Part shown: positions 2-63,450 of the stretch, one piece after another
How the letters are laid out: each line of letters begins with the position of its first letter
Numbering within the stretch: position 1 is the first letter of the stretch
Assembly: GCA_044378055.1 (NCBI GenBank)
Contig: JBILXY010000002.1
Span: 27,122 to 91,121, forward strand
DNA: 64,000 bases
From: Bdellovibrionales bacterium
GTDB lineage: Bacteria > Patescibacteriota > JACMRA01
Direction of reading: 5' to 3'
Notes under the pieces: model-generated
Database searches by the model: none
Seen by the model: only the letters and a program-made list of their open reading frames with translations
What the model was told of the DNA's origin: nothing
Made by a program: the position numbers and the translations under genes

Positions 2-3000
2 AACTCGGTACGGTTTAGTTACGGAAATTTTGACGACCCCTTGAACAGGCCAAGTACAGCCGATATTTTATTCACCCTAACAGTTACCGACACACCATTT
101 GCCGATGGAGTTAATTTAGTTAACCAGGTTCGTTCCAATGTTGGAACCACCAATTCGGTAGGCCAAGTAGCCGATGCTATAGTTCCTGTTATTCTTTCAT
201 TGCCTGGATTAAACACTACCAAAGGCATAGTTTCCAGCGATGTTCCTGCAGCAGTTTATACACCGGTAACCAGAGGGCCTGTTACTTTCAACAACCCAGG
301 TGGTGCAAGTTGTACTTTAGCCAATCACAGATTTACTGGAACAATTAATTCAACTAACAGAACCGCAACACCAATCACAAGTAACATAAGCGGTTTAGAC
401 GCAGGCGATTTAGTAACCATGGTAACTACTGTTGAAAATACTGGTCTTGGGCCAAAAGGAGCCTTTAATGTTACTTTAAACGATGTTTTACCAGCAGGGC
501 TTACAATTCCAACAGGAGGATTAAATTTATGTGTTACCAACGGGGCCGGAACTCCATTAGCCTTTACCCCTGTAAACCCATTAGATACAAACCCATGGGT
601 ACAAAGTGGAATTAGGTTGACCGACCCAAGTGGAATTCAAGGCGCAATTTCAGCTTTTGATGCCACAAGTGGAACAAATATTGTGGTTATAAGTTATGAC
701 TTAGCTGTTGCAACTTCCGCTTCACCTAGGCAGGTATTAACGAACCAAAGCATTCTTTCTAATTATACTGCTTCTGCTGCTGGGCCAAACTTTCTTTCTT
801 CTTCCTTAACCGATTCAGCTAGTGTAACTTTAAGGGCTGGAACAACTGCCAAATCAATTCTTGGCACTAACCAAGCTAGTACTGCTGGTTTAAATGTAGC
901 CATTGGTGAACAAGTTCAATATAGGGTGGTGGTTACTGTTCCAGAAGGAACCTCGGCAAGTTCAACTATTGTGGACACATTGGATTCTGGGCTTGCTTTT
1001 GTTTCTGTAGATTCAATTACTTCCAGTTCAACCGATTTAACAACCAGTATAGTTGGTGGTTATCCAACAGTTTTAGCTAACCGGGTTGTTTCAAGTAGCG
1101 GGGCTGGCGCGACCAATGCTGGAAGAGTTCTAACTTTAAACTTTGGTACTTTAACCAATGTGAACACCAATAATGCCGTAGCAGAAACCATTACCATTGA
1201 TTATACAGTTGTGGTTATAAATACCGCAGGAGCCGTTCGTGGAACTAACTTAAATAACTCTGTTGTTTATAACTGGAATAATGGTTCTGCCCAAAGTTTA
1301 GCGACCGTTTCAGCAACCAATGTTGTAGTTGTAGAGCCAACTTTATTAACCAGCAAAACTGCCAGCGTGGCCACTGGAGACGCCAATGATATTATTACTT
1401 ACACCGTTACAGTAAACCATTCCGGAGCTTCAAACTTAGCAGCATCAGAGGTCAGCTTAAGCGATATTATTCCTGCTGGAATTACTTACCAAACTGGAAC
1501 TTTAGCCTATTTTTCAGGTGCTGTTCCAACTACTTTAACCGAAGCTAGCGGAACTATTACGGCCACCTGGACAACATTCCCGCTTGCAACAACTTCTGTG
1601 TTTAGATTCCAAGCTATAGTAAATACCAATGTAAATCCTTCACAACTTATTGCCAATGTGGCCAACACCCAGTGGACTTCTTTACCAGGAATAATTTCCA
1701 CCACTCAATCCACTTTCAACACCTTAGCCACAGAAAGAACAGGAAATGTAGGTGATGTTGGAGGTGCTGCAAACAATTACAGGGCTGCAGGAACTGCCAA
1801 CTTTACTGTACTTGGAACTATTCCTTTAAAAACTATTGTTACCACTTCCGAAAGCTTCACTGGAAATGTAGCTGGTGTGGAAAGATTAGCAGTTGGTGAA
1901 ATTGTAAGATACAGAATGGCCATTCGTGTACCTGAAGGAATTACCCCGGCTCTTGTTTTAACCGATAACCTGCCAGCTGGGCTTACCTTTATTAATGATG
2001 GAACTGCACTTTATGCCACAAGTTCAAACGGAGGTGTGGTTTCAAGCGTAGGTGCTTTGGCTGTTGGTTGTGATCAAGTAGGTTCTAGCAATGCAATTAC
2101 TGCCACTTGTGCTATTCCGGGTGGAAATATTACTGGAAGCCCATTTAACGATGGAACTGACCCAAGTTTTGTGCTTGGAAGCATTACTAATACCGATAAT
2201 GATGTTAATGAAGAATTCGTTATTGTGGAATTTAATGCTTTAGTTTCCAATGTGGCTGGTAACCAAGCCTTCAACCAAACTACTTCGGCAGTTACAAATA
2301 CAACTTTAGCTAACACTTTCCAAAGCTTTATTAATACATCTACTCTGGTTGGAACTTCAACAGCCCTTAACATTCAAGTGGCAGAACCATTGATTAATAA
2401 TTTGGCTGAATCTTTAGTAGTTGTTCCTACCGATGCTGGTGATCCGATTGAATATAATATTACTTTCAGTAACACTGCCACTGGAAATAATGCATCCCCA
2501 GCTTTTGATTTAACTTTGGTTGACCAACTAAGTTCTAACTTTGATTTGTTAACTGTTACCGTAACTTCTAAACCTGGATACACCAATGTAACCGACAATT
2601 CTGTTACCCCAACTGGACTTGCAAGCTTAGTTTTTGATAGATTAAACCCAGGTGATTCAATTACAGTAAGAATAACCGGACAAGTTATAAGTGCCTTTAA
2701 CCTTGGTGGTAATTTACAAAGCAATCCAAGTTTAAGATACACTTCCCTACCTGGAACTGGAACTGCTTCTAACCCAACTGGTTCTGTTACCCCAATTAGC
2801 CCTGCAACTTCAACTGAAAGAACTGGAACAACCTTGCCAGCTCAAAACGATTATCAGACTTTTGCTTCCTTTAATATTCCAACAGGTACAAATATTGGTG
2901 TCGATAAAATTACACCTGCAATCACCAGTTATACCATTGGTGAACAGCCAGTTTTCGACATTAGAGTTAACCTGCAAGAAGGTGTTATAAACAGTGTGAG

Positions 3001-6000
3001 GGTGAGAGACACCCTACCGGTTGGTTTGGATTTGGTTAGTTATCAGGTAATTACAACCGCGGCTGCAAGTTCAGGGGCTTTAAGCCAAGATTTTGCAGGA
3101 ACTTTAAACCCAGAAACTTTATCAGTATCAGGTCAAAATGCTACTTGGAATTTTGGTAATGTTAATGTAACCTCGGATAATATTAATACAAACAATACAT
3201 TTATAATTAGAGTTACCACCAGAGTTAACAATTTACCTTCCAACATTAATAATTTTGTGCTGGTTAATAATTCCAGTGTAATTTATCAAAACCCTACCAC
3301 CTTGCTTGATGTTACCGTAGTTGATCCTACCCCTGTAAGTATTACAGTTTTAGAACCAGTGATGAGTATTACCAAGGTGTTCAGCCCATCCAGCGCTGCA
3401 CCAAACGATGTCGTAAATATTACATTAACTGCCACAAATAGCGGGGGATCTACTTCTTTCGAAACTAATATTCAAGATTTAGTTAACACAAGTTCCCACT
3501 TTACAAATGTCACCCCAATTACCACCCCAGTAGGATTTACATACTCAACTGCTCCTAGTGGCGGCAATACAATGGTAACTTACACAGGTGGAAATATTCC
3601 TGCCGGTCAGAACAGAGTGTTTGTATTTTCAGCTCAAGTTCAAAGCACATTAGCGGGAGGGCAAACAATTAATAACTCGGCTTCTATAACCCAATCTACT
3701 ACTCTTTCCGGTGTTTCAGCTTTTGAAAGATTAGAACCAGTTGTTAGTGGAAATGCCAACTTAGTTATTCAAGTTCCAGATTTAGTTTTAACCAAAACTG
3801 ATGCTCAAACTACAGTAATTCCAGGTCAAAACCTAGTTTATAACCTTACTGTTACCAATAGCGGAACATACAGGGCAGATAATGTTACAATTACTGAAAA
3901 CCTTCCTGCCAATACAACTTTTAGCGCCACAAACAGTTTACCAGATGTCTGGAGCGGAACAGGACCATACACCATAAATATTGGAACTTTAAACCCAGGA
4001 CAGACCAGAATTGTAAGATTTGCAGTTCAAGTAAATGCTTCAGTACCAAGCGGAGTAACCAGCCTTACCAACAATGCCAGCGTAGTTGATGATGGAACCC
4101 ATGGGGCAGATTTAACCCCTCTAAATAACCAAGCTACGGATGTTGATGTTTTAAATGCCACCCCAGATTTAACCATAACCAAAACCGACGGAAATGTAAC
4201 TGTAACTACTGGAGACTTGATTACCTATACTTTGGGATACAATAATGCGGGCAATCAAAATGCCACTGGTGTGGTAATTTCTGAAACCGTTCCTGCCAAT
4301 ACCACCTTCAATTCTGCCGGCTCAACATCGGGCTGGAGTTGTACTAATGGGGCAATCGCTGGAAGTGTTTGTAACTTTACCATAGGAAACCTTTCGGTAG
4401 GTACAAGCGGTTCTGTAAACTTCGCCGTAACCACCAATGCTACAATACCTGCTGGCGTAAATAATATAACCAACACTGCCACAATTACCGATGATGGAAC
4501 TAATGGAATTGACCCTACCCCCGTAAACAACCAAGCCACTGAACCTACCCCAATTACCGCCACCCCAGATATTGTAATTACCAAAACTGATGGCCAAACT
4601 ACTGTTCTACCAAGCCAAACTTTAACTTATACTTTAACAATTTCAAATGTTGGTAACCAAGGGGCATCAGGAGTGGTAATATCAGATACTTTGCCTGCTG
4701 GAATGAACTATAATTCTTCTTCAAATGCTGGTGTTCCAAGCGGACAAACAATTACATGGCCAACAATTTCACTGGCTGCTGGTGCTGTTATAACTAGAAC
4801 TGTTACAGTTACATTAAACAGTAATTTCCCTTCTGGAGTAAATAGTTTAACCAACAACGCCGCTGCTAATGATGATGGAACAAACGGAGCTGATCCTACC
4901 CCATTGAATAATGCAACTACTGATGTTGATACTTTAAATGCAGCCCCAGATTTAAGAATTACCAAAACTGATGGCGGCGCAACCCCTGTTCCAGGCAATA
5001 ACCTTATTTATACTTTAAATTACGATAATATCGGCAACCAAAACGCCACCGGTGTAGTTATAACCGAGACTGTTCCTAATGATACTACTTTCAGTACAAC
5101 AGGATCTAGTGTTGGTTGGAGCTGTGCTAATGGTGCTGTGGCTGGAACAACTTGTTCGTTTAATGTTGGAAACTTTAATGTTGGAGCTACTGGAAGTATT
5201 ACATTTGCTGTTTTAGTAGATAATCCTTTGCCTAGTGGTGTTGATACAATTACCAATACTGTTTCTATTGCTGATGATGGTACTAATGGTGTGGATCAGA
5301 ATTTAGCCGATAACCAAGCAACCGAAACAACCCCAGTTATTGCCGCCCCAGAAATTTCCATAACCAAAACCGATGGTAAAACCAATTTGGATCCTGACGA
5401 ATTAAATACTTACACTTTAACCATCACCAACAATGGTAATCAAGATGCTACCGGAGTGGTTATTACCGACACATTGCCTCTTTCACTTGGCTATCTAACT
5501 TCAAGCGATTCAGGTGTATTTGCAAGCCCTACAATAACTTGGCCAACTATAACCTTGGCAGCAGGCCAAACAGTAACAAGAACAGTGGATGTTGTGGTTG
5601 CAGATTCTGCCCCAATTCCTGCCGGTCTTGAAACTATAAGAAACGAAGCTTCAGCTAATGATGATGGAACAAACGGAGCCGACCCTATTCCAGCCAATAA
5701 CATAACCGAGGATATTGACACCATAACTGGTTTACCAGACTTAAGAATTACCAAAACAGATAACCAAACTACTGCTACACCAAATCAGCTGGTTATTTAC
5801 AATCTTAATGTTCAAAACACAGGTAATCAAAATGCTTCGGGGGTTATTGTAACTGAAACTGTTCCTGCTGGAAGTACTTTTGTGGCTTCATCAAGCACTC
5901 CAGGCTGGGTTTGTGCTGGCGGAGGAATTGCAGGAAGCACTTGTACATTTAGCCTTGGTGGTTTAAACGGAGGAAGCTCTGCGCCACTAGATTTTGCCGT

Positions 6001-7462
6001 GCAAACAGATACAACAATTAGCGTTCCAAGTTTAATTAACACAACCACAGTAGCCGATGACGGTTTAGGCGGAATTGATGCAACCCCATTGAACAATACA
6101 TCAACTGATACAGATAATTTCCTTGGTAATCCTGATATATCTGTAACTAAAGACGACCTTTTGACTATAGCAAACCCAGGACAAATTTTACCTTACAGCA
6201 TAACTGTTACCAATTTAGGAAATGTTATTTCCACAGGTATTTCCGTGATAGACACAATTCCAGTACAAACTAACTTTGTAAGTGCTTCAAATTCAGGAAC
6301 TTACAACCCAACTGGAAGAACAGTTTCTTGGAACATACCAACTTTAACCCCAGGTCAAAGTGTAATTTTCACAACCAACATCCAAGTAAATAGTTTAATA
6401 CCGGCTGGAATTGATAATCTTTCCAACACTGTTGCTGTAATCGATGATGGAACCCATGGTGTTGATTTAGATTTAAGTAATAATAACGCCGAAGATATTG
6501 ACTTTTTGCAAGCAAGGCCAGAGTTAGAAATTATAAAAACCAGTAACCAAGCTTCAGCCTTCCCTAATGAAATATACATTTACCAACTAAATTATGCTAA
6601 CATAGGCGACCAAGGCAGCACTGGGGTTGTAATAACCGAAACTGTTCCAAATTATTCTACATTTAGCACGACAGGATCTTCCTCAGGTTGGAGCTGTAAT
6701 AACGGCGATATTGCAGGCACAACTTGTACTTATAATGTTGGAGGCTTGGCAGCTACCGAAACCGGTTTAATAACCTTCGCAGTAAGGCTTAATAGCACAG
6801 TTCCAACTGGTATTACCGAGTTAATTAACGAAGTTGAAATTGCTGACGATGGAAACAACGGAAATGAACCAATTTTGGCTAATAACTTCTCTTCACTGAC
6901 TACCCCAATTCCTAAGGTTGATTTGGAAATTATAAAAACTGTTGATAAAACCTCAGTTAGTTTACAAGAAGAACTAACCTACAACTTTATTTACAGAAAC
7001 TTAGGCCCTGATATTGCTACAAATGTTGTAATGTCAGATTTACTTCCTGCAGGCTTCCAGTTCATAAGTGCCAGCCAGAACAATTTGCCAATCACCGTTC
7101 AACTTTCAGATGGTGGAAACGGCAGAACCTTAATTCAGTACCAATTAGGTGCACTGCAACCTGGCTTTGAAGGAACACTTTCAGTTCGAACCAAAATTAT
7201 TAACCCAAGTGCTGGCCAAATTGAAAATCAGGTGACTATTCAATCACGCGAAGTAGATCCTGAAGTTTCCAACAACAGAAGTTCAGCTTTTGTTGAGGTA
7301 ATAATTCCAGGGCAAGGACCAAATTACAACAAATATGTTGTCCGTACCGGAGGAGAATTTTACTCAGGCCTAACAATGCTTATTCTAGCCCTAGTAAGCG
7401 GAGTATATCTACTAAGCTTCCAACCAAATTCCAAGAGAAAAACGGTAGAAGAAAAAGTTTAA
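2..7462 (+). CDS. Giant cell-surface/adhesin-like protein, 5'-partial (2,486 codons in the window), built from DUF11-type 'conserved repeat domain' modules. It ends in a C-terminal sorting-signal-like membrane anchor.
   Basis: The frame is open from nt 2, with no stop upstream of the TTG at 41 used by the ORF track, so the gene probably starts left of the window. A recurring signature is seen: P[DE]LxITKTDG..PGxxLxYTLxxxNxGNQxATGVVIxxTLP...DDGTNGxDPxPxNN. Composition is Thr/Asn/Val-rich. The C-terminus reads VVRTGG-EFYSG-LTMLILALVSGVYLLSF-QPNSKRK. Confidence 0.85.
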   Translation, partial: NSVRFSYGNFDDPLNRPSTADILFTLTVTDTPFADGVNLVNQVRSNVGTTNSVGQVADAIVPVILSLPGLNTTKGIVSSDVPAAVYTPVTRGPVTFNNPGGASCTLANHRFTGTINSTNRTATPITSNISGLDAGDLVTMVTTVENTGLGPKGAFNVTLNDVLPAGLTIPTGGLNLCVTNGAGTPLAFTPVNPLDTNPWVQSGIRLTDPSGIQGAISAFDATSGTNIVVISYDLAVATSASPRQVLTNQSILSNYTASAAGPNFLSSSLTDSASVTLRAGTTAKSILGTNQASTAGLNVAIGEQVQYRVVVTVPEGTSASSTIVDTLDSGLAFVSVDSITSSSTDLTTSIVGGYPTVLANRVVSSSGAGATNAGRVLTLNFGTLTNVNTNNAVAETITIDYTVVVINTAGAVRGTNLNNSVVYNWNNGSAQSLATVSATNVVVVEPTLLTSKTASVATGDANDIITYTVTVNHSGASNLAASEVSLSDIIPAGITYQTGTLAYFSGAVPTTLTEASGTITATWTTFPLATTSVFRFQAIVNTNVNPSQLIANVANTQWTSLPGIISTTQSTFNTLATERTGNVGDVGGAANNYRAAGTANFTVLGTIPLKTIVTTSESFTGNVAGVERLAVGEIVRYRMAIRVPEGITPALVLTDNLPAGLTFINDGTALYATSSNGGVVSSVGALAVGCDQVGSSNAITATCAIPGGNITGSPFNDGTDPSFVLGSITNTDNDVNEEFVIVEFNALVSNVAGNQAFNQTTSAVTNTTLANTFQSFINTSTLVGTSTALNIQVAEPLINNLAESLVVVPTDAGDPIEYNITFSNTATGNNASPAFDLTLVDQLSSNFDLLTVTVTSKPGYTNVTDNSVTPTGLASLVFDRLNPGDSITVRITGQVISAFNLGGNLQSNPSLRYTSLPGTGTASNPTGSVTPISPATSTERTGTTLPAQNDYQTFASFNIPTGTNIGVDKITPAITSYTIGEQPVFDIRVNLQEGVINSVRVRDTLPVGLDLVSYQVITTAAASSGALSQDFAGTLNPETLSVSGQNATWNFGNVNVTSDNINTNNTFIIRVTTRVNNLPSNINNFVLVNNSSVIYQNPTTLLDVTVVDPTPVSITVLEPVMSITKVFSPSSAAPNDVVNITLTATNSGGSTSFETNIQDLVNTSSHFTNVTPITTPVGFTYSTAPSGGNTMVTYTGGNIPAGQNRVFVFSAQVQSTLAGGQTINNSASITQSTTLSGVSAFERLEPVVSGNANLVIQVPDLVLTKTDAQTTVIPGQNLVYNLTVTNSGTYRADNVTITENLPANTTFSATNSLPDVWSGTGPYTINIGTLNPGQTRIVRFAVQVNASVPSGVTSLTNNASVVDDGTHGADLTPLNNQATDVDVLNATPDLTITKTDGNVTVTTGDLITYTLGYNNAGNQNATGVVISETVPANTTFNSAGSTSGWSCTNGAIAGSVCNFTIGNLSVGTSGSVNFAVTTNATIPAGVNNITNTATITDDGTNGIDPTPVNNQATEPTPITATPDIVITKTDGQTTVLPSQTLTYTLTISNVGNQGASGVVISDTLPAGMNYNSSSNAGVPSGQTITWPTISLAAGAVITRTVTVTLNSNFPSGVNSLTNNAAANDDGTNGADPTPLNNATTDVDTLNAAPDLRITKTDGGATPVPGNNLIYTLNYDNIGNQNATGVVITETVPNDTTFSTTGSSVGWSCANGAVAGTTCSFNVGNFNVGATGSITFAVLVDNPLPSGVDTITNTVSIADDGTNGVDQNLADNQATETTPVIAAPEISITKTDGKTNLDPDELNTYTLTITNNGNQDATGVVITDTLPLSLGYLTSSDSGVFASPTITWPTITLAAGQTVTRTVDVVVADSAPIPAGLETIRNEASANDDGTNGADPIPANNITEDIDTITGLPDLRITKTDNQTTATPNQLVIYNLNVQNTGNQNASGVIVTETVPAGSTFVASSSTPGWVCAGGGIAGSTCTFSLGGLNGGSSAPLDFAVQTDTTISVPSLINTTTVADDGLGGIDATPLNNTSTDTDNFLGNPDISVTKDDLLTIANPGQILPYSITVTNLGNVISTGISVIDTIPVQTNFVSASNSGTYNPTGRTVSWNIPTLTPGQSVIFTTNIQVNSLIPAGIDNLSNTVAVIDDGTHGVDLDLSNNNAEDIDFLQARPELEIIKTSNQASAFPNEIYIYQLNYANIGDQGSTGVVITETVPNYSTFSTTGSSSGWSCNNGDIAGTTCTYNVGGLAATETGLITFAVRLNSTVPTGITELINEVEIADDGNNGNEPILANNFSSLTTPIPKVDLEIIKTVDKTSVSLQEELTYNFIYRNLGPDIATNVVMSDLLPAGFQFISASQNNLPITVQLSDGGNGRTLIQYQLGALQPGFEGTLSVRTKIINPSAGQIENQVTIQSREVDPEVSNNRSSAFVEVIIPGQGPNYNKYVVRTGGEFYSGLTMLILALVSGVYLLSFQPNSKRKTVEEKV
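3775..7290 (+). repeat. In-frame tandem array of 9 DUF11-like units inside the giant gene.
   Basis: Unit starts (PDL/PDI/PEL..TKTDG) are at 3775, 4163, 4565, 4946, 5348, 5735, 6131, 6518 and 6914, giving spacings of 381-402 nt. Two unit types alternate. One carries GWSCxxGxxAGxxC; the other carries TITWPTIxLAAG. Confidence 0.85.
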
Positions 7463-7473
7463 CCCAAATGCAG

Positions 7474-7492
7474 GGGAATGCTTGCCATTCCC
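7474..7492. repeat. GC-rich hairpin GGGAATG-CTTGC-CATTCCC. It belongs to the 'GGG..CTTG..CCC' family also seen at 38853, 39074, 39147 and 56607.
   Basis: A perfect 7-bp stem lies 12 nt after the stop of the giant gene. It is not followed by a T-tract, so it is not a canonical terminator. Confidence 0.6.
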
Positions 7493-7553
7493 GTTGAGGG
7501 CCGTAGCGTCGAACGCGGATCGACATGGATCGACATGAAAAAAAACGAGGCCC

Positions 7554-7594
7554 ATTCTCCCTTGTAAAGGGAGGTGCCCAACGGGCGGAGGGTT
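7554..7594 (+). repeat. Two-hairpin GC-rich repeat, family B copy.
   Basis: Sequence ATTCTCCCTTGTAAAGGGAGGTGCCCAACGGGCGGAGGGTT. Hairpin 1 is CTCCCTT/AAGGGAG, hairpin 2 is GCCC-AAC-GGGC, and a G-rich tail follows. Confidence 0.7.
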
Positions 7595-7643
7595 AGAAGC
7601 GTAGGCAAAGGGAAGTTGGAGGGTTATTGGCAAAACTGACACC

Positions 7644-7689
7644 AATTCCCCCTTGAGAAGGGGGTGGCAACCGCAGGTTGACGGGGGTT
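7644..7689 (+). repeat. Two-hairpin GC-rich repeat, family B copy.
   Basis: Sequence AATTCCCCCTTGAGAAGGGGGTGGCAACCGCAGGTTGACGGGGGTT. Hairpin 1 is CCCCCTT/AAGGGGG, hairpin 2 is CAACC-GCA-GGTTG, and the tail is GACGGGGG. Confidence 0.75.
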
Positions 7690-7711
7690 AAAAAAACTCC
7701 CCTTGCGGGGA
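7689..7711 (-). terminator. Intrinsic terminator downstream of tRNA-Thr.
   Basis: The minus strand reads TCCCC-GCAA-GGGGA followed by GTTTTTTTAA, 12 nt after the tRNA 3' end. Confidence 0.7.
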
Positions 7712-7722
7712 ATTAAAATTTC

Positions 7723-7798
7723 TGGAGCCAACAATCGGATTCGAACCGATGACCTTTTCCTTACCATGGAAATGCTCTACCGACTGAGCTATGTTGGC
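7723..7798 (-). tRNA. tRNA-Thr (anticodon GGU), CCA encoded.
   Basis: Manual cloverleaf on the minus strand. Acceptor GCCAACA/TGTTGGC; D arm GCTC-AGTCGGTA-GAGC; anticodon arm TTTCC-ATGGTAA-GGAAA; T arm ATCGG-TTCGAAT-CCGAT; discriminator T followed by CCA. Confidence 0.9.
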
Positions 7799-8004: not shown

Positions 8005-8026
8005 GGAGACTGGGAGTCTCCGCTAC
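8005..8026 (+). repeat. REP-like element, family A: GGAGACT-GGG-AGTCTCC + GCTAC.
   Basis: A perfect 7-bp palindrome plus a CTAC tail (GTAG on the opposite strand). Near-identical copies lie at 9987, 10561 and 18913. Confidence 0.8.
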
Positions 8027-9986: not shown

Positions 9987-10008
9987 GGAGACTGGGAGTC
10001 TCCGCTAC
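9987..10008 (+). repeat. REP-like element, family A.
   Basis: GGAGACTGGGAGTCTCCGCTAC, 33 nt after the zwf-like stop and 18 nt before the next start codon. Confidence 0.8.
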
Positions 10009-10560: not shown

Positions 10561-10582
10561 GGAGACTAGGAGTCTCCGCTAC
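10561..10582 (+). repeat. REP-like element, family A (one loop substitution).
   Basis: GGAGACTAGGAGTCTCCGCTAC, 14 nt after the stop at 10547. Confidence 0.8.
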
Positions 10583-18912: not shown

Positions 18913-18934
18913 TGAAGACTGGGAGTCTCCGCTA
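18913..18934 (+). repeat. REP-like element, family A (one stem substitution).
   Basis: GAAGACTGGGAGTCTCCGCTAC, 11 nt beyond the stop of the minus-strand GT26-Nudix gene. Confidence 0.75.
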
Positions 18935-18944
18935 CTGACGATTT

Positions 18945-36737: not shown

Positions 36738-38201
36738 TTATTGATTGTGCCTACTAAAAATAATTACGAAAGGTGTTTTCATTAAAATCCACAAATCTAG
36801 CCAAAAACTCCAGTTTTCTAAGTAGTGTACATCCAGCAAAACTTCGCCTTCAAAATCTAGATCACTTCTGCCATTTACTTGGGCAAGCCCAGTAATTCCT
36901 GGCTTAATATTCAAGACCTTCATGTGATGTGATTTATATTTAGCAACCTCTCTTGGTTGATGTGGTCTTGGGCCTACTAAAGACATACTTCCAAGTAAAA
37001 CATTTATAAATTGTGGCAATTCATCTATACTATATTTTTCGATGAAGGCTCCTACTTTAGTTTGTCTAGGGTCATCTTTAATTTTATAAAGAATATCATC
37101 ACGCATATTACTTTTCTTAATCAGCTCTGCTTCTAATTCCAAAGCTTTAACAGAATTAGGATCGCTTTCCGAGGTATTAAATTCTTGATAGTACCTTCTA
37201 AATTTCCACAATTTAAAAACCTTACCATCCGGCCCAATCCTTTCGCTAAAGTATATCACCATACCGGCCGATTCTAAACGAATAGCAATAGCAGTAATTA
37301 TTAAAATTGGCGAAGTAATGATAAGTAAAAATAAGCTGGCAACAATATCAAAAAGTCTTTTCCAAACCAACATCCAACCATCTAAATTTGTATGCTTCAA
37401 TCTTAAGAAAAAAGTATTTTGAATTTTCTGAAATTCCGTTCCAAAAGCTCCAAATCTTTCAACACCAGTTGGATGCACCAAAAAATCCACTTTATTTAAC
37501 TCGGCTAAACTTGCCAATTTGGTTTCAAGCTCATGGTTGCTGGAAAATAAATAAATTTCTGAAATATTTCCAAACTTTATTAGGTCGCTAATAGCAGTAA
37601 AAGAGTTTGTGTTTAATTCTGCATAAGTATAAATTAAGGCCACCTCTGCTTTGTTAGCCAGCCATTTCCCAATTTCAGCATTATTTTTTCCAACTAAAAT
37701 AACCTTACTTTTTAAGTAGCCTAATTTATACAAAAGCTGTTCTATCGCCCACACCCCAAGCCTTGCTAAAACTACACAATACAGAGTTACAAACCCCCCT
37801 GTTCCTAATATAAATCTGCTGATTGGAACACCTTCAGGCAGTGTATCACGATTAAATTCGTTGAAGAAAAAGAAGGTAATAATCGCCAACAAAACCGAAA
37901 ATATTCCCAAGAATAATTGAAAAAAAGTGGCAATCCAATTTTGCTTTCTATTGACTTCGTATAATCCAAGAAGGCTATAAATTACTATTACAGCCAAAGC
38001 CAAAGCTATGGATAAATAAAAGTAATCTAATCTTTCAATTTGTTTGGTTCCAGAAAGTTGAAAACCCAACAAAGTATCTTCATTAAACCACCTGTATCTG
38101 ATTAAATAAACCAAGCCTGCCCCAAATACAATGCTTAAAAAGTCTAATATGGGCTGAAAGGTTATCCTCCAAATATTTTTTGTTTCAGAATTACTAAACA
38201 T
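36738..38201 (-). CDS. Polyprenyl-phosphate sugar phosphotransferase (WbaP/EpsB 'bacterial sugar transferase' family).
   Basis: Several N-terminal TM segments. C-terminal KRLFDIVASLFLLIITSPILIITAIAIRLES, FKLWKFRRY and DELPQFINVLLGSMSLVGPRP. Confidence 0.85.
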   Translation of the reverse strand: MFSNSETKNIWRITFQPILDFLSIVFGAGLVYLIRYRWFNEDTLLGFQLSGTKQIERLDYFYLSIALALAVIVIYSLLGLYEVNRKQNWIATFFQLFLGIFSVLLAIITFFFFNEFNRDTLPEGVPISRFILGTGGFVTLYCVVLARLGVWAIEQLLYKLGYLKSKVILVGKNNAEIGKWLANKAEVALIYTYAELNTNSFTAISDLIKFGNISEIYLFSSNHELETKLASLAELNKVDFLVHPTGVERFGAFGTEFQKIQNTFFLRLKHTNLDGWMLVWKRLFDIVASLFLLIITSPILIITAIAIRLESAGMVIYFSERIGPDGKVFKLWKFRRYYQEFNTSESDPNSVKALELEAELIKKSNMRDDILYKIKDDPRQTKVGAFIEKYSIDELPQFINVLLGSMSLVGPRPHQPREVAKYKSHHMKVLNIKPGITGLAQVNGRSDLDFEGEVLLDVHYLENWSFWLDLWILMKTPFVIIFSRHNQ

Positions 38202-38202
38202 T

Positions 38203-38577
38203 TTATTGAATCATGCTTTGTAGAAAAACTAAAAGCCAGGCCAGTCCAAAATATGTTCCAATAGAAGATGCAAACAATAAGACTATACTAAATAATAACT
38301 CGTACTTACCTTTTAAGAAACCAAGCTTAGCCCAAAACTTTGCCAAAACTTTGTCGGCAAAAAGTATGCAGCCTGTAAATAAACCAAAAACAATTACAGA
38401 GAGCGCAATTACAGAGGCAAGTTCATTAAAACTGTTTACGAAGGAGGTTAAATGTAATAGTCGAACCAGTGTAACAAATAACATACTTATTCCAACAAAA
38501 ACAATTCCAAAAATCCAAAGCGAAATGGATAGCACGAAATAGTTAAAACTTAAACTAATTTTATTATTTTCTGGCAT
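38203..38577 (-). CDS. Small membrane protein (124 aa, about 4 TM).
   Basis: Hydrophobic ORF whose stop lies 1 nt upstream of the sugar-transferase start (same strand). Confidence 0.5.
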   Translation of the reverse strand: MPENNKISLSFNYFVLSISLWIFGIVFVGISMLFVTLVRLLHLTSFVNSFNELASVIALSVIVFGLFTGCILFADKVLAKFWAKLGFLKGKYELLFSIVLLFASSIGTYFGLAWLLVFLQSMIQ

Positions 38578-38726
38578 TTGTATGAAAAGTATAGTTGGTG
38601 GTGGAATTTGTCAACCTGAAAAACAAACAAAGGGATTTATTTATAAGAGTCTAAAATAGTGGCAGAAATGTTTTTGACAAGCGCATAAAGTCCAATTTTA
38701 ACTACTACATTAATTTAGAGCAAAAT

Positions 38727-39341
38727 ATGGCTATAAAACAAACACGCAAATCAAATCGTCTTCCATTTAAATCAATTTATACATCCAACAATTCCTTTTT
38801 TATTACCATGTGTGTGGAAGGGAGGATTTGTTGTTTGTCTAAAATATTTGATGGGAAGGCAAGCCTTACCCCTACGGGTAAAATTGTTGAGGAATCTTGG
38901 TTATCTTTGACCAATTTGGTAAATGATATTCAACTTGATGAATTTGTGATTATGCCAAATCATTTTCACGGAATTATTACTTTTTTCGACCCACCAACAT
39001 TTAAAAATTCAGAAAGATTGGTTGATTTATCCCAAATAATGGCCATATTTAAATCTAAAACAACAAATTTAATCCGTAGGGGAATGCCTTCGGCTTCCCG
39101 AGATAACCGAAGAATTTTGACTGCCCAAGACAACATGGTTTGTAACGGGAAGGCAAGCCTTACCCCTACGAATATACCGAAATTTCAATGGCAGAAATCT
39201 TTTTATGATCATGTTATACGGGATGAAACAGATTTGCTTCGGGTTCGAGAATATATTTTTAATAACCCTTTACAGTGGGAACTGGATATTCTTAATCCAA
39301 AAAATGAGGATGAATACCAAAGATGGTTAATTGCAAAATAA
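38727..39341 (+). CDS. IS200/IS605-type HUH-Y1 transposase of the REP-associated (RAYT-like, COG1943) kind.
   Basis: HUH motif in MPNHFHGII and catalytic Tyr context WQKSFYDHVIRDE. The N-terminus NRLPFKSIYTSNNSFFITMCVEGR is typical of the family. No terminal inverted repeats or second transposase ORF are present. Confidence 0.75.
   Translation: MAIKQTRKSNRLPFKSIYTSNNSFFITMCVEGRICCLSKIFDGKASLTPTGKIVEESWLSLTNLVNDIQLDEFVIMPNHFHGIITFFDPPTFKNSERLVDLSQIMAIFKSKTTNLIRRGMPSASRDNRRILTAQDNMVCNGKASLTPTNIPKFQWQKSFYDHVIRDETDLLRVREYIFNNPLQWELDILNPKNEDEYQRWLIAK
38853..38876 (+). repeat. GC-rich palindromic element inside the RAYT ORF (copy a).
   Basis: GGGAAGGCAAGCCTTACCCCTACG, identical over 24 nt to 39147-39170. 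It ends in CTAC. Confidence 0.8.
39074..39098 (-). repeat. GC-rich palindromic element inside the RAYT ORF (copy b, inverted).
   Basis: CGTAGGGGAATGCCTTCGGCTTCCC, an imperfect reverse complement of copies a and c. It begins (C)GTAG. Confidence 0.7.
39147..39170 (+). repeat. GC-rich palindromic element inside the RAYT ORF (copy c).
   Basis: GGGAAGGCAAGCCTTACCCCTACG. It forms an inverted pair with copy b, separated by 48 nt. Confidence 0.8.
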
Positions 39342-39419
39342 GAAAAAAGATAGAAGTAAAGAATACCAAAATCTAAGCGATATGAACCTAAGAAAATTTT
39401 AAAACACTGTGATTACCCC

Positions 39420-39764
39420 CTACCCAATTCTAACTTCAACTTGAAGATTGGAGTGTTTTTCTTTTAATTTTTCTTCGAACACGCCAATATTGGTTTTTAG
39501 AAAAGCTAGCAAAGTTCTGTTTTCTGATTGAATTTTAATGTTTAAGTCGCTCAATTCCTCGGTCTGTTTCACAAAAACTTGAATTTGTTCAATGTCTTGT
39601 TTATCTAAACCCAGGCTTTCTAAAACCGTGTTAATATCTTCCCTAACTGTGAAATTAAGAAAGGCAAGTTGCTTTAACTTGCCAAACCCGCTTTGTTTTA
39701 TTTTTTCGCCTAATGTTCCTAATTTTGAAAGCTTGGACACTTTTAATATATTAAACTTGTACAA
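39420..39764 (-). CDS. Hypothetical protein (114 aa).
   Basis: The ORF start overlaps the 3' end of the RNase J gene by 14 nt on the same strand. Confidence 0.45.
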   Translation of the reverse strand: MYKFNILKVSKLSKLGTLGEKIKQSGFGKLKQLAFLNFTVREDINTVLESLGLDKQDIEQIQVFVKQTEELSDLNIKIQSENRTLLAFLKTNIGVFEEKLKEKHSNLQVEVRIG

Positions 39765-55963: not shown

Positions 55964-56049
55964 AATTCCCCTCTTGAGGCACTGGTACAGTTCGGGTTTC
56001 CCGAACGACATGAGTGTCCGAAGGGTGGCAGTCGCAGACTGACGGGGTG
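55964..56049 (+). repeat. Family B repeat copy interrupted by a ~44-nt nested GC-rich insertion.
   Basis: AATTCCCCTCTTGAGG[CACTGGTACAGTTCGGGTTTCCCGAACGACATGAGTGTCCGAAG]GGTGGCAGTCGCAGACTGACGGGGTG. Hairpin 2 is CAGTC-GCA-GACTG. The insert carries its own hairpin GTTCGGG-TTT-CCCGAAC. Confidence 0.7.
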
Positions 56050-56606: not shown

Positions 56607-56650
56607 CCGTAGGGGCGTAGCTTGCTAGCCCAGGGCCTGACTGCCACTAC
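56607..56650 (+). repeat. GC-rich GTAG-hairpin element, related to the palindromes inside the RAYT ORF.
   Basis: CCGTAGGGGCGTAGCTTGCTAGCCCAGGGCCTGACTGCCACTAC. It shares CGTAGGGG...CTTG...CCC with 39074-39098 and ends in CTAC. Confidence 0.55.
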
Positions 56651-63216: not shown

Positions 63217-63258
63217 AATCCACCTCTTGAGGGGTGGCAGGCAAAGCCTGACGGGGTG
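63217..63258 (+). repeat. Two-hairpin GC-rich repeat, family B copy.
   Basis: AATCCACCTCTTGAGGGGTGGCAGGCAAAGCCTGACGGGGTG. Hairpin 2 is CAGGC-AAA-GCCTG. Confidence 0.75.
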
Positions 63259-63406: not shown

Positions 63407-63450
63407 TTCCCCTCTTGAGGGGTGGCAAATTCAAAGAATTTGACGGGGTG
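63407..63450 (+). repeat. Two-hairpin GC-rich repeat, family B copy.
   Basis: TTCCCCTCTTGAGGGGTGGCAAATTCAAAGAATTTGACGGGGTG. Hairpin 2 is AAATTC-AAA-GAATTT. It lies 11 nt beyond the stop of the 63461 gene. Confidence 0.75.

Follow-up and report, generated by a model that had tools for sequence, protein, structure and literature searches.

Repetitive extragenic palindromes within the reading frame of a subclass 2.4 RAYT gene from an AT-rich member of the Patescibacteriota

REP-associated tyrosine transposases (RAYTs, or TnpA_REP) and the repetitive extragenic palindromes (REPs) form systems that best exemplify how a transposase is domesticated along with its non-autonomous elements. Where such a gene contains its own recognition hairpins in frame, it lends itself to the study of the coupling between enzyme and substrate. 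The closest described systems are the tnpA_REP genes of subclass 2.4 (RAYT Group 4 of Bertels et al. 2017, PMC5581495), which are defined by the motifs NH[IFV]H, WQ and YIxNNP and in which REPs inside the gene and in its frame were reported as a "unique feature" (Quentin et al. 2018, BMC Genomics 19:475, PMC6006769). Here we analyse a gene of this kind at positions 38727 to 39341 (plus strand) of a stretch of 64,000 nucleotides, the window, from Bdellovibrionales bacterium (GTDB Patescibacteriota, JACMRA01; assembly GCA_044378055.1, contig JBILXY010000002.1, positions 27,122 to 91,121 of the forward strand). The intragenic-REP phenomenon was already published for subclass 2.4 in 2018, and the present gene is a further case with variant insertion sites; a full-text literature search returned no other paper on REPs inside RAYT genes.

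REPs of subclass 2.4 are either canonical long hairpins with three G-C pairs at the base of the stem or of the 'double foot' type, cognate REPs carry a GT[AG]G foot, and the insert lies 'generally between HuH and Y', in the beta3/alphaC loop, with flanking REPs 'in addition' (PMC6006769). In Groups 2 and 3 the enzyme binds the folded REP as single-stranded DNA (ssDNA) with GTAG as a guide, cleavage takes place at a nearby CT or CA, a 5'-phosphotyrosyl link is formed and strand transfer is possible (PMC3479197, PMC8266576). GTAG-tagged REPs in frame had earlier been catalogued in many unrelated genes (Di Nocera et al. 2013, PMC3733652).

The reading that we consider probable is that of a vertically inherited chromosomal RAYT gene carrying cognate REPs that were inserted, or converted, in frame. 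With this locus the phenomenon is documented in an uncultivated, AT-rich lineage (the window has about 35% GC), and the sites able to host REPs are seen to include other loops and even a structured strand. The locus also provides matched relatives in which one REP family is internal, as in the window, or flanking, as in locus L170, and modest evidence that the internal copies are constrained at the level of the DNA.

The gene and its encoded enzyme

The open reading frame (ORF) of 204 codons is intact, and by homology, fold and motifs its product is a Y1 HUH enzyme, a TnpA_REP/RAYT of subclass 2.4 that is probably domesticated. With a profile of 38 homologues the sole sequence match in the PDB was E. 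coli TnpA_REP (4ER8), and the alignment takes in the HUH strand as well as WQKSFYDHVIR...EYIFNNP. The AlphaFold2 (AF2) model of the protein, with a predicted local distance difference test score (pLDDT) of 85 and a predicted TM-score (pTM) of 0.78, retrieved 4er8_A as the top Foldseek match (E = 5e-6, target-normalised TM-score 0.61), followed by the TnpA proteins of IS608 and ISDra2. The three motifs of the subclass 2.4 signature (Table 1 of PMC6006769) appear as NHFH, WQ and YIFNNP. An earlier note on this DNA, drawn from the letters alone, had called the gene RAYT-like, of the Y1 HUH type and furnished with REP-type palindromes in frame, and this description is borne out by the match to 4ER8 and by the three GTAGGGG-plus-hairpin units described below.

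The HUH motif, H79-F80-H81 of PNHFH (38961 to 38969, plus), occupies invariant columns of the homologue alignment and corresponds to PEHMH of E. coli. The predicted catalytic tyrosine is Tyr176 in YIFNNP (39252 to 39254, plus): Y176-IFN-N180-P181 is invariant or near-invariant among the homologues, Y176 and N180 being strictly so, and its counterpart in E. coli is Y115...N119-P120. The earlier note had instead taken KSFYDHVIRDE for the catalytic region, an assignment that we correct, as that stretch aligns to the GTAG-recognition strand. Residues W155-R165 of beta4 (WQKSFYDHVIR, 39189 to 39221, plus) align to W94-R104 of E. coli TnpA_REP, and W155, Q156, Y160, D161, H162 and R165 fall opposite W94, Q95, W99, E100, H101 and R104, which contact the GTAG foot in E. 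coli (PMC6006769; Messing 2012). These residues are hence the predicted GTAG-recognition residues of the window protein.

The ratio of nonsynonymous to synonymous divergence (dN/dS) of the gene against its orthologues is 0.16-0.34, which denotes purifying selection, and with the intact ORF and the conserved catalytic residues a pseudogene was rejected. The RAYT at locus L001 is 86% identical at the protein level and shares synteny on the upstream side (a Bac_transf gene and a small ORF), which stops upstream of about 36660; loci L164 and L167 are syntenic with each other, with the RAYT gene between rpoB and leuS. RAYT homologues were found in 5 of 72,556 plasmids, and the window holds one RAYT gene copy. 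Hallmarks of IS200/IS605 elements were absent from the locus, which has no tnpB and no flanking hairpins and is syntenic and single in the window.

Three REP units within the reading frame

All three internal units consist of GTAG and GGG...CCC, as do cognate REPs of subclass 2.4. Copy a (38853 to 38876, minus), which reads CGTAGGGGtAAGG-CTTG-CCTTCCC on the minus strand, encodes GKASLTPT at residues 43-50; copy c (39147 to 39170, minus) is identical to it and encodes the same octapeptide at residues 141-148. The 24-mer concerned, GGGAAGGCAAGCCTTACCCCTACG, is present exactly twice (38853-38876 and 39147-39170) and in the same codon phase, so that the direct repeat and its shared translation are as the earlier note had given them. 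No further copy at up to three mismatches was found in the 64-kb window, which is the scope of our genome search, and none was expected by chance. The minus-strand reading, CGTAG-GGGtAAGG-CTTG-CCTTCCC, has a GTAG foot and, directly after it, a short hairpin with three G-C pairs at its base.

Copy b (39075 to 39099, plus), composed of CGTAGGGGAAtGCC-TTC-GGCTTCCC, encodes RRGMPSAS at residues 117-124, right after helix alphaC. An inverted imperfect copy had been recognised here before, and it is present, although it begins at 39075 and not at 39074: CGTAGGGGAATGCCTTCGGCTTCCC has the G of GTAG at 39076 and the plus-strand layout CGTAG-GGGAAtGCC-TTC-GGCTTCCC. It stands 47-48 nt upstream of copy c, with 79% complementarity over 19 nt, and the two thus form the inverted pair between HUH and catalytic tyrosine that had been claimed. 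Together, copy b, a 47-nt spacer and copy c (39075 to 39170, plus) make a doublet of 96 nt, or 32 codons, with CGTAG...CTACG ends and feet pointing outward, that is, 'double-foot' or like a REPIN (REP doublet forming a hairpin). Folded as ssDNA (39072-39173) it gives one long imperfect hairpin of -19.3 kcal/mol (z = -3.98), and 0 of 200 shuffles did as well. Neither arm recurs in the 64 kb at up to three mismatches, so there is no second doublet in it. The gene flanks, 38578-38726 and 39342-39420, are without a GTAG-hairpin, in agreement with the earlier statement that no REPs surround the gene, and no Rfam family covers any of the repeats reported here.

The doublet occupies the alphaC-beta4 loop, after helix 101-118 (alphaC). 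AF2 gave a pLDDT below 50 to residues 123-147, the sole low-confidence stretch besides the five N-terminal residues, and in P0021 and P0028, homologues that lack REPs, no more than about four residues stand at the site of this 32-residue insert. Copy a lies before HUH, in a small beta-hairpin that precedes helix alphaA, where K-A-S-L forms the second strand; its residues are modelled confidently as hairpin strand and helix N-cap (mean pLDDT about 95). The structure check suggested in the earlier note, on whether the insert is a surface loop, thus points to a surface loop predicted to be disordered for b-c and to a structured strand for copy a. In the AF2 model of P0005 (locus L169) the REP-coded KASL is again a strand and the extra residues form a low-confidence loop. 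At this locus 10 extra codons have GGGAAGG as a direct repeat on either side, as would fit insertion of a REP followed by deletion of the native strand, although the P0005 model speaks less for that route. In L166 the native strand (SIKLSPLG) is kept beside a REP doublet. In some lineages, then, native residues seem to have given way to REP-coded ones.

The generality of internal REPs was tested with relatives of at most 39% identity from scans of public genome and metagenome contigs, which were saturated by the very common motifs MPNHFH and DEFVIMPN; the family sample comprised 152 non-redundant genes from Cyanobacteria, Chloroflexota, Proteobacteria, Bacteroidota, Patescibacteria and other groups. 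An internal GTAGGGG was present in 101 genes and missing from 51, and the commonest layout had two copies between HUH and WQ, the first on the plus and the second on the minus strand. A plus head in the phase that gives an in-frame TAG never occurred among the 152. Inside the genes GTAGGGG occurred about 2.3 times per kb, compared with 0.22 times per kb in the 1.9 Mb of DNA around them, and a hairpin followed 85% of the in-gene heads compared to 28% with shuffled tails. Hairpins were detected per sequence and set against shuffled tails because in a MAFFT alignment of 23 REPs the stems do not stay in register, owing to bulges and unequal stem lengths; a control with permuted head tetranucleotides was uninformative, since it picked up the identical hairpins in a shifted register.

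The position of the insert differs between clades. In most family genes the plus REP lies 9-24 residues past PNHxH, in the beta3/alphaC loop, whereas in the window gene and at L001, L164/L165, L166 and L167 it lies 40-44 residues past this motif, after alphaC, and the minus copy ends 6-10 residues before WQ. REP sites in the alphaC-beta4 loop and in a structured beta-hairpin, away from the published beta3-alphaC loop, are modestly new.

In the genes of close homologues for which the DNA was examined, the head is an invariant GTAGGGG (or GTAGAGG) and the stems are self-complementary but specific to each genome: GAGAAAC/GTTTCTC and CGAATT/AATTCG in L164, CaGGAT/ATCCGC and AcGCAT/ATGCT in L166, AACG/CGTT in L167. 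Copies within a single gene are near-identical to one another. Minus-strand copies in these close relatives always stand in the ...PT phase, and plus-strand copies read VG.. or RRG... One might suppose that GKASLTPT and RRGMPSAS are conserved peptide motifs of an ordinary kind and the palindromes incidental, and G....[AST]PT does recur in many homologues at the protein level. The recurring residues are, however, the translated foot itself (CCCCTAC giving PT, GTAGGGG giving VG or RRG), the residues in between vary freely while the DNA stays self-complementary, and matching DNA occurs in non-coding positions. The variable peptides over self-complementary DNA and an extragenic copy of the 24-mer refute coding conservation, to which we assign a negligible probability. 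Comparison with homologues, which the earlier note had proposed as its check, accordingly revealed different peptides from different yet palindromic DNA.

Some close relatives carry more elaborate arrangements. Locus L166 has two paralogous subclass 2.4 RAYT genes about 1.3 kb apart (715-1368 and 2690-3163), each with its own, differing internal REP pair. The gene at 10001-10819 of L164 (protein P0045) contains the REP doublet twice, before HUH and after alphaC, in near-identical stretches of about 40 residues running from VGEKLVSPIPSQVAPQG... to ...GELKFAPT; the copy before HUH has a few extra residues, and a third, minus REP stands near the C-terminus. P0007 and P0008 have tandem QKETGFI repeats at the doublet site of P0045.

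Origin and maintenance of the internal REPs

Two readings had been offered for the internal palindromes, invasion of the gene without loss of the frame or the gene as origin of the intergenic elements, and comparison of the sequences favours the former. REP-free homologues have short loops at the matching positions, and the b-c insert has CGTAG...CTACG as its exact boundaries, measures 32 codons and is predicted to be disordered; both observations argue for invasion. So does a relative, the metagenome-assembled contig L168 (RAYT 59% identical), where the exact 24-mer, which is not found elsewhere in the window, occurs extragenically at 2094-2116; the refuting condition of the earlier note, a 24-mer confined to this gene, thus does not hold. 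There it is the minus arm of an intergenic doublet adjoining a tRNA gene, with a b-like plus arm 64 nt upstream. Invasion is further favoured by L170, whose coding sequence is REP-free and flanked by REPs of the same sequence family as the internal copies of the window: one, on the plus strand, ends about 20 nt short of the start codon, and the other, on the minus strand, begins about 20 nt past the stop. Since the REP family is flanking, dispersed or internal in different relatives, the gene would have been invaded and would not be the origin.

That the gene segment is instead the source or template of the REPs of the genome is very unlikely in our judgement. It is true that copy a sits in codons native to a conserved beta-hairpin whose length is unchanged, that the strand beside the REPs in L002 (YLTPAG, CTT ACA CCT GCA GGT) resembles the 3' half of a REP, and that three of the four hairpin-forming GTAGGGG-type elements of the window lie in the gene. 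Yet extragenic subclass 2.4 REPs of unrelated phyla share the design of foot plus hairpin, most family members host their REPs in another loop, and L170 combines a REP-free coding sequence with REPs of this family both around the gene and dispersed. Moreover, stems are wholly different between genomes while copies in one gene are near-identical, which fits repeated import or homogenisation and not a single origin.

If the REPs did enter the gene from outside, one may envisage the following course. The three internal palindromes would be cognate REPs of the enzyme's own family, and the single-stranded DNA of the gene would present three such substrates to it. By analogy with the characterised enzymes, H79 and H81 would provide the HUH metal site and cutting near the REP would proceed via Y176. 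Strand transfer by the RAYT, or else conversion, may have brought in the REPs near the site of synthesis, favoured by action in cis, and only in-frame, stop-free versions in permissive positions would have survived. The two identical 24-mers could reflect recent copying or conversion between sites. The inserts would largely be tolerated passengers, and the eight codons of copy a would today supply the second strand of a beta-hairpin.

Several observations weigh against an invaded RAYT gene with cognate, passively carried REPs. The match to Pfam Y1_Tnp (PF01797) is significant by E-value but sub-threshold (19.8 bits, curated cutoff 23), as is that to NCBIfam REP_Tyr_transpos (NF047646; 1.1e-15, 57.8 bits, curated cutoff 80); the scores fall short probably because the inserts split the core domain, and for annotation the inserts would account both for these scores and for odd low-complexity segments such as 'VGAG...APT' and 'GKASLTPT'. 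The single hairpins are weak as ssDNA and fold no better than shuffles (z -0.7 to -1.6; copy b -5.8 kcal/mol), so that their folding energies are not usable as evidence alone. Copy a is not a simple loop insertion, since homologues without REPs are of equal length at this place and its codons specify a structured strand. The restriction of the genome search to the window counts on the same side, as does the published biochemistry, which covers Groups 2 and 3 only and no enzyme of subclass 2.4. Finally, third-codon identity to orthologues is raised in the REP codons compared with the rest of the gene (for L169 0.88 vs 0.61, for L002 0.80 vs 0.55, p about 0.03 each), and stems show compensatory changes, AAGG/CCTT having become AAGC/GCTT in L168, with a shifted bulge in L002. 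The third-position conservation and the compensatory stems argue that the REPs are not purely neutral passengers, and the sequences suggest DNA-level constraint on the internal REPs or their homogenisation with extragenic copies.

The internal REPs could accordingly be selected cis-elements, acting in autoregulation through a DNA or mRNA hairpin, in the control of translation or stability, or as a protected 'master copy' through which enzyme and REP would be inherited, and would evolve, together. Apart from the third positions and the stem changes, this would agree with the GTAGGGG head being intact in those 101 of 152 genes, in many phyla and usually as one plus and one minus copy. The synonymous divergence (dS) from L001 is also in line with it, being 0.19 for the RAYT gene and 0.66 for the adjacent Bac_transf gene, whose dN/dS is 0.04 (36738-39341); Bertels remarked that Group 4 RAYTs evolve slowly (PMC5581495), with which a dS of 0.19 is consistent. 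In addition, the window has internal REPs without flanking ones and L170 flanking REPs without internal ones, so that the arrangements look substitutable. On the other hand, 51 of the genes do without GTAGGGG and the REP-free coding sequence of L170 looks intact, which indicates that internal REPs are not required. Their positions vary by clade (mostly beta3-alphaC; alphaC-beta4 and pre-HUH here), gene conversion with extragenic copies explains the conservation equally well, and the p-values are modest and the sample small. We therefore regard selected cis-elements as unlikely and retain the invaded RAYT gene with largely tolerated REPs as the probable reading. With similar doubt, one may speculate that subclass 2.4 as a whole keeps its internal REPs by DNA-level selection, as a self-recognition or autoregulatory site or as a master copy that couples the evolution of enzyme and hairpin, that in this clade the REP peptide has been co-opted as a beta-strand, and that internal and flanking layouts are interchangeable.

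Other repeats of the window and comparison with known systems

Outside the gene, intergenic relatives of the GTAG-GGG type had been noted at two places. The one at 56608 to 56631 (plus), CGTAGGGGCgTAG-CTTG-CTAGCCC (CGTAGGGGCGTAGCTTGCTAGCCC), is intergenic and a genuine relative, with near-identical matches in the intergenic REPs of L170 at 2497 and 8339; the other, at 7470-7492, has a GCAG foot and is a degenerate REP. It belongs to a region of dense GC-rich hairpins (7463-7722) between a 2473-codon ORF (41-7462, running off near the start of the window) and a tRNA-Thr gene (7723-7798, minus), which also contains a GTAGCG with a hairpin (about 7504-7525) and a tandem duplication of GGATCGACAT (about 7517-7537).

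A second REP family, GTAGCGGAGACTCCCAGTCTCC, has four intergenic copies, at 8005 to 8026 (minus), 9987-10008, 10561-10582 and 18914-18935, with the minus-strand layout GTAG-C-GGAGACT-CCC-AGTCTCC. The copies differ by 0-1 mismatch, none being expected by chance, and the ssDNA hairpin has a z of -2.96. REPs of this GTAGCGG type also occur in L164 and L167, where one stands immediately downstream of the L167 RAYT gene. The family differs from the in-gene GTAGGGG copies. Another part of the genome may hold a second, cognate RAYT.

A further structured repeat has four intergenic copies, all on the plus strand (7662-7686, 56023-56047, 63232-63256 and 63420-63448). Its order is a preceding hairpin, GGGTGGCA, a variable hairpin with covarying arms (ACC/GGT, GTC/GAC, GGC/GCC, AAATTC/GAATTT) and TGACGGGG; in three of the four copies the preceding hairpin is C-rich/G-rich (e.g. 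CCCCTCT-TGAG-GGGG). It gave no match in Rfam, was absent from the 169 other loci fetched and has no consistent orientation with respect to neighbouring genes.

Among known systems, E. coli TnpA_REP (RayT/YafM, 4ER8; subclass 2.2, Group 2) shares with the window protein the fold, the HUH motif, Tyr-x3-N-P and the W, Q, aromatic, acidic, H and R residues that contact GTAG. The two proteins are only 17% identical and differ in their C-terminal regions, and the E. coli REPs are bulged and reside in flanking bacterial interspersed mosaic elements (BIMEs), never within the gene. The b-c doublet resembles REPINs (Bertels & Rainey 2011) in being an inverted REP pair with a spacer that folds as one long hairpin. 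REPINs, in contrast, lie outside genes, occur in tens to hundreds of copies per genome and flank RAYTs of Groups 2 and 3, whereas the arms of b-c are different REP variants and the doublet is single in the 64 kb.

In-frame insertions of REPs (PMC3733652) and of Rickettsia palindromic elements (RPEs) are alike in being GTAG-tagged palindromes, single or dimeric, that add 8-30 residues and are tolerated in loops, sometimes two per ORF. Their hosts, however, are unrelated housekeeping genes, while here the host is the gene of the presumed acting enzyme and the insertion recurs across a subclass.

Closest of all is subclass 2.4 itself. The window gene and its near, AT-rich relatives depart from the published members in having the doublet after alphaC and not in the beta3/alphaC loop, and the window gene further in its extra REP before HUH, in a structured beta-hairpin, and in being without the flanking REPs (REPtron) that L170 has. 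With the subclass the window gene shares the motifs, the GTAG foot with three G-C pairs and a variable insert predicted to be peripheral, and probably also low copy number, chromosomal location and slow evolution.

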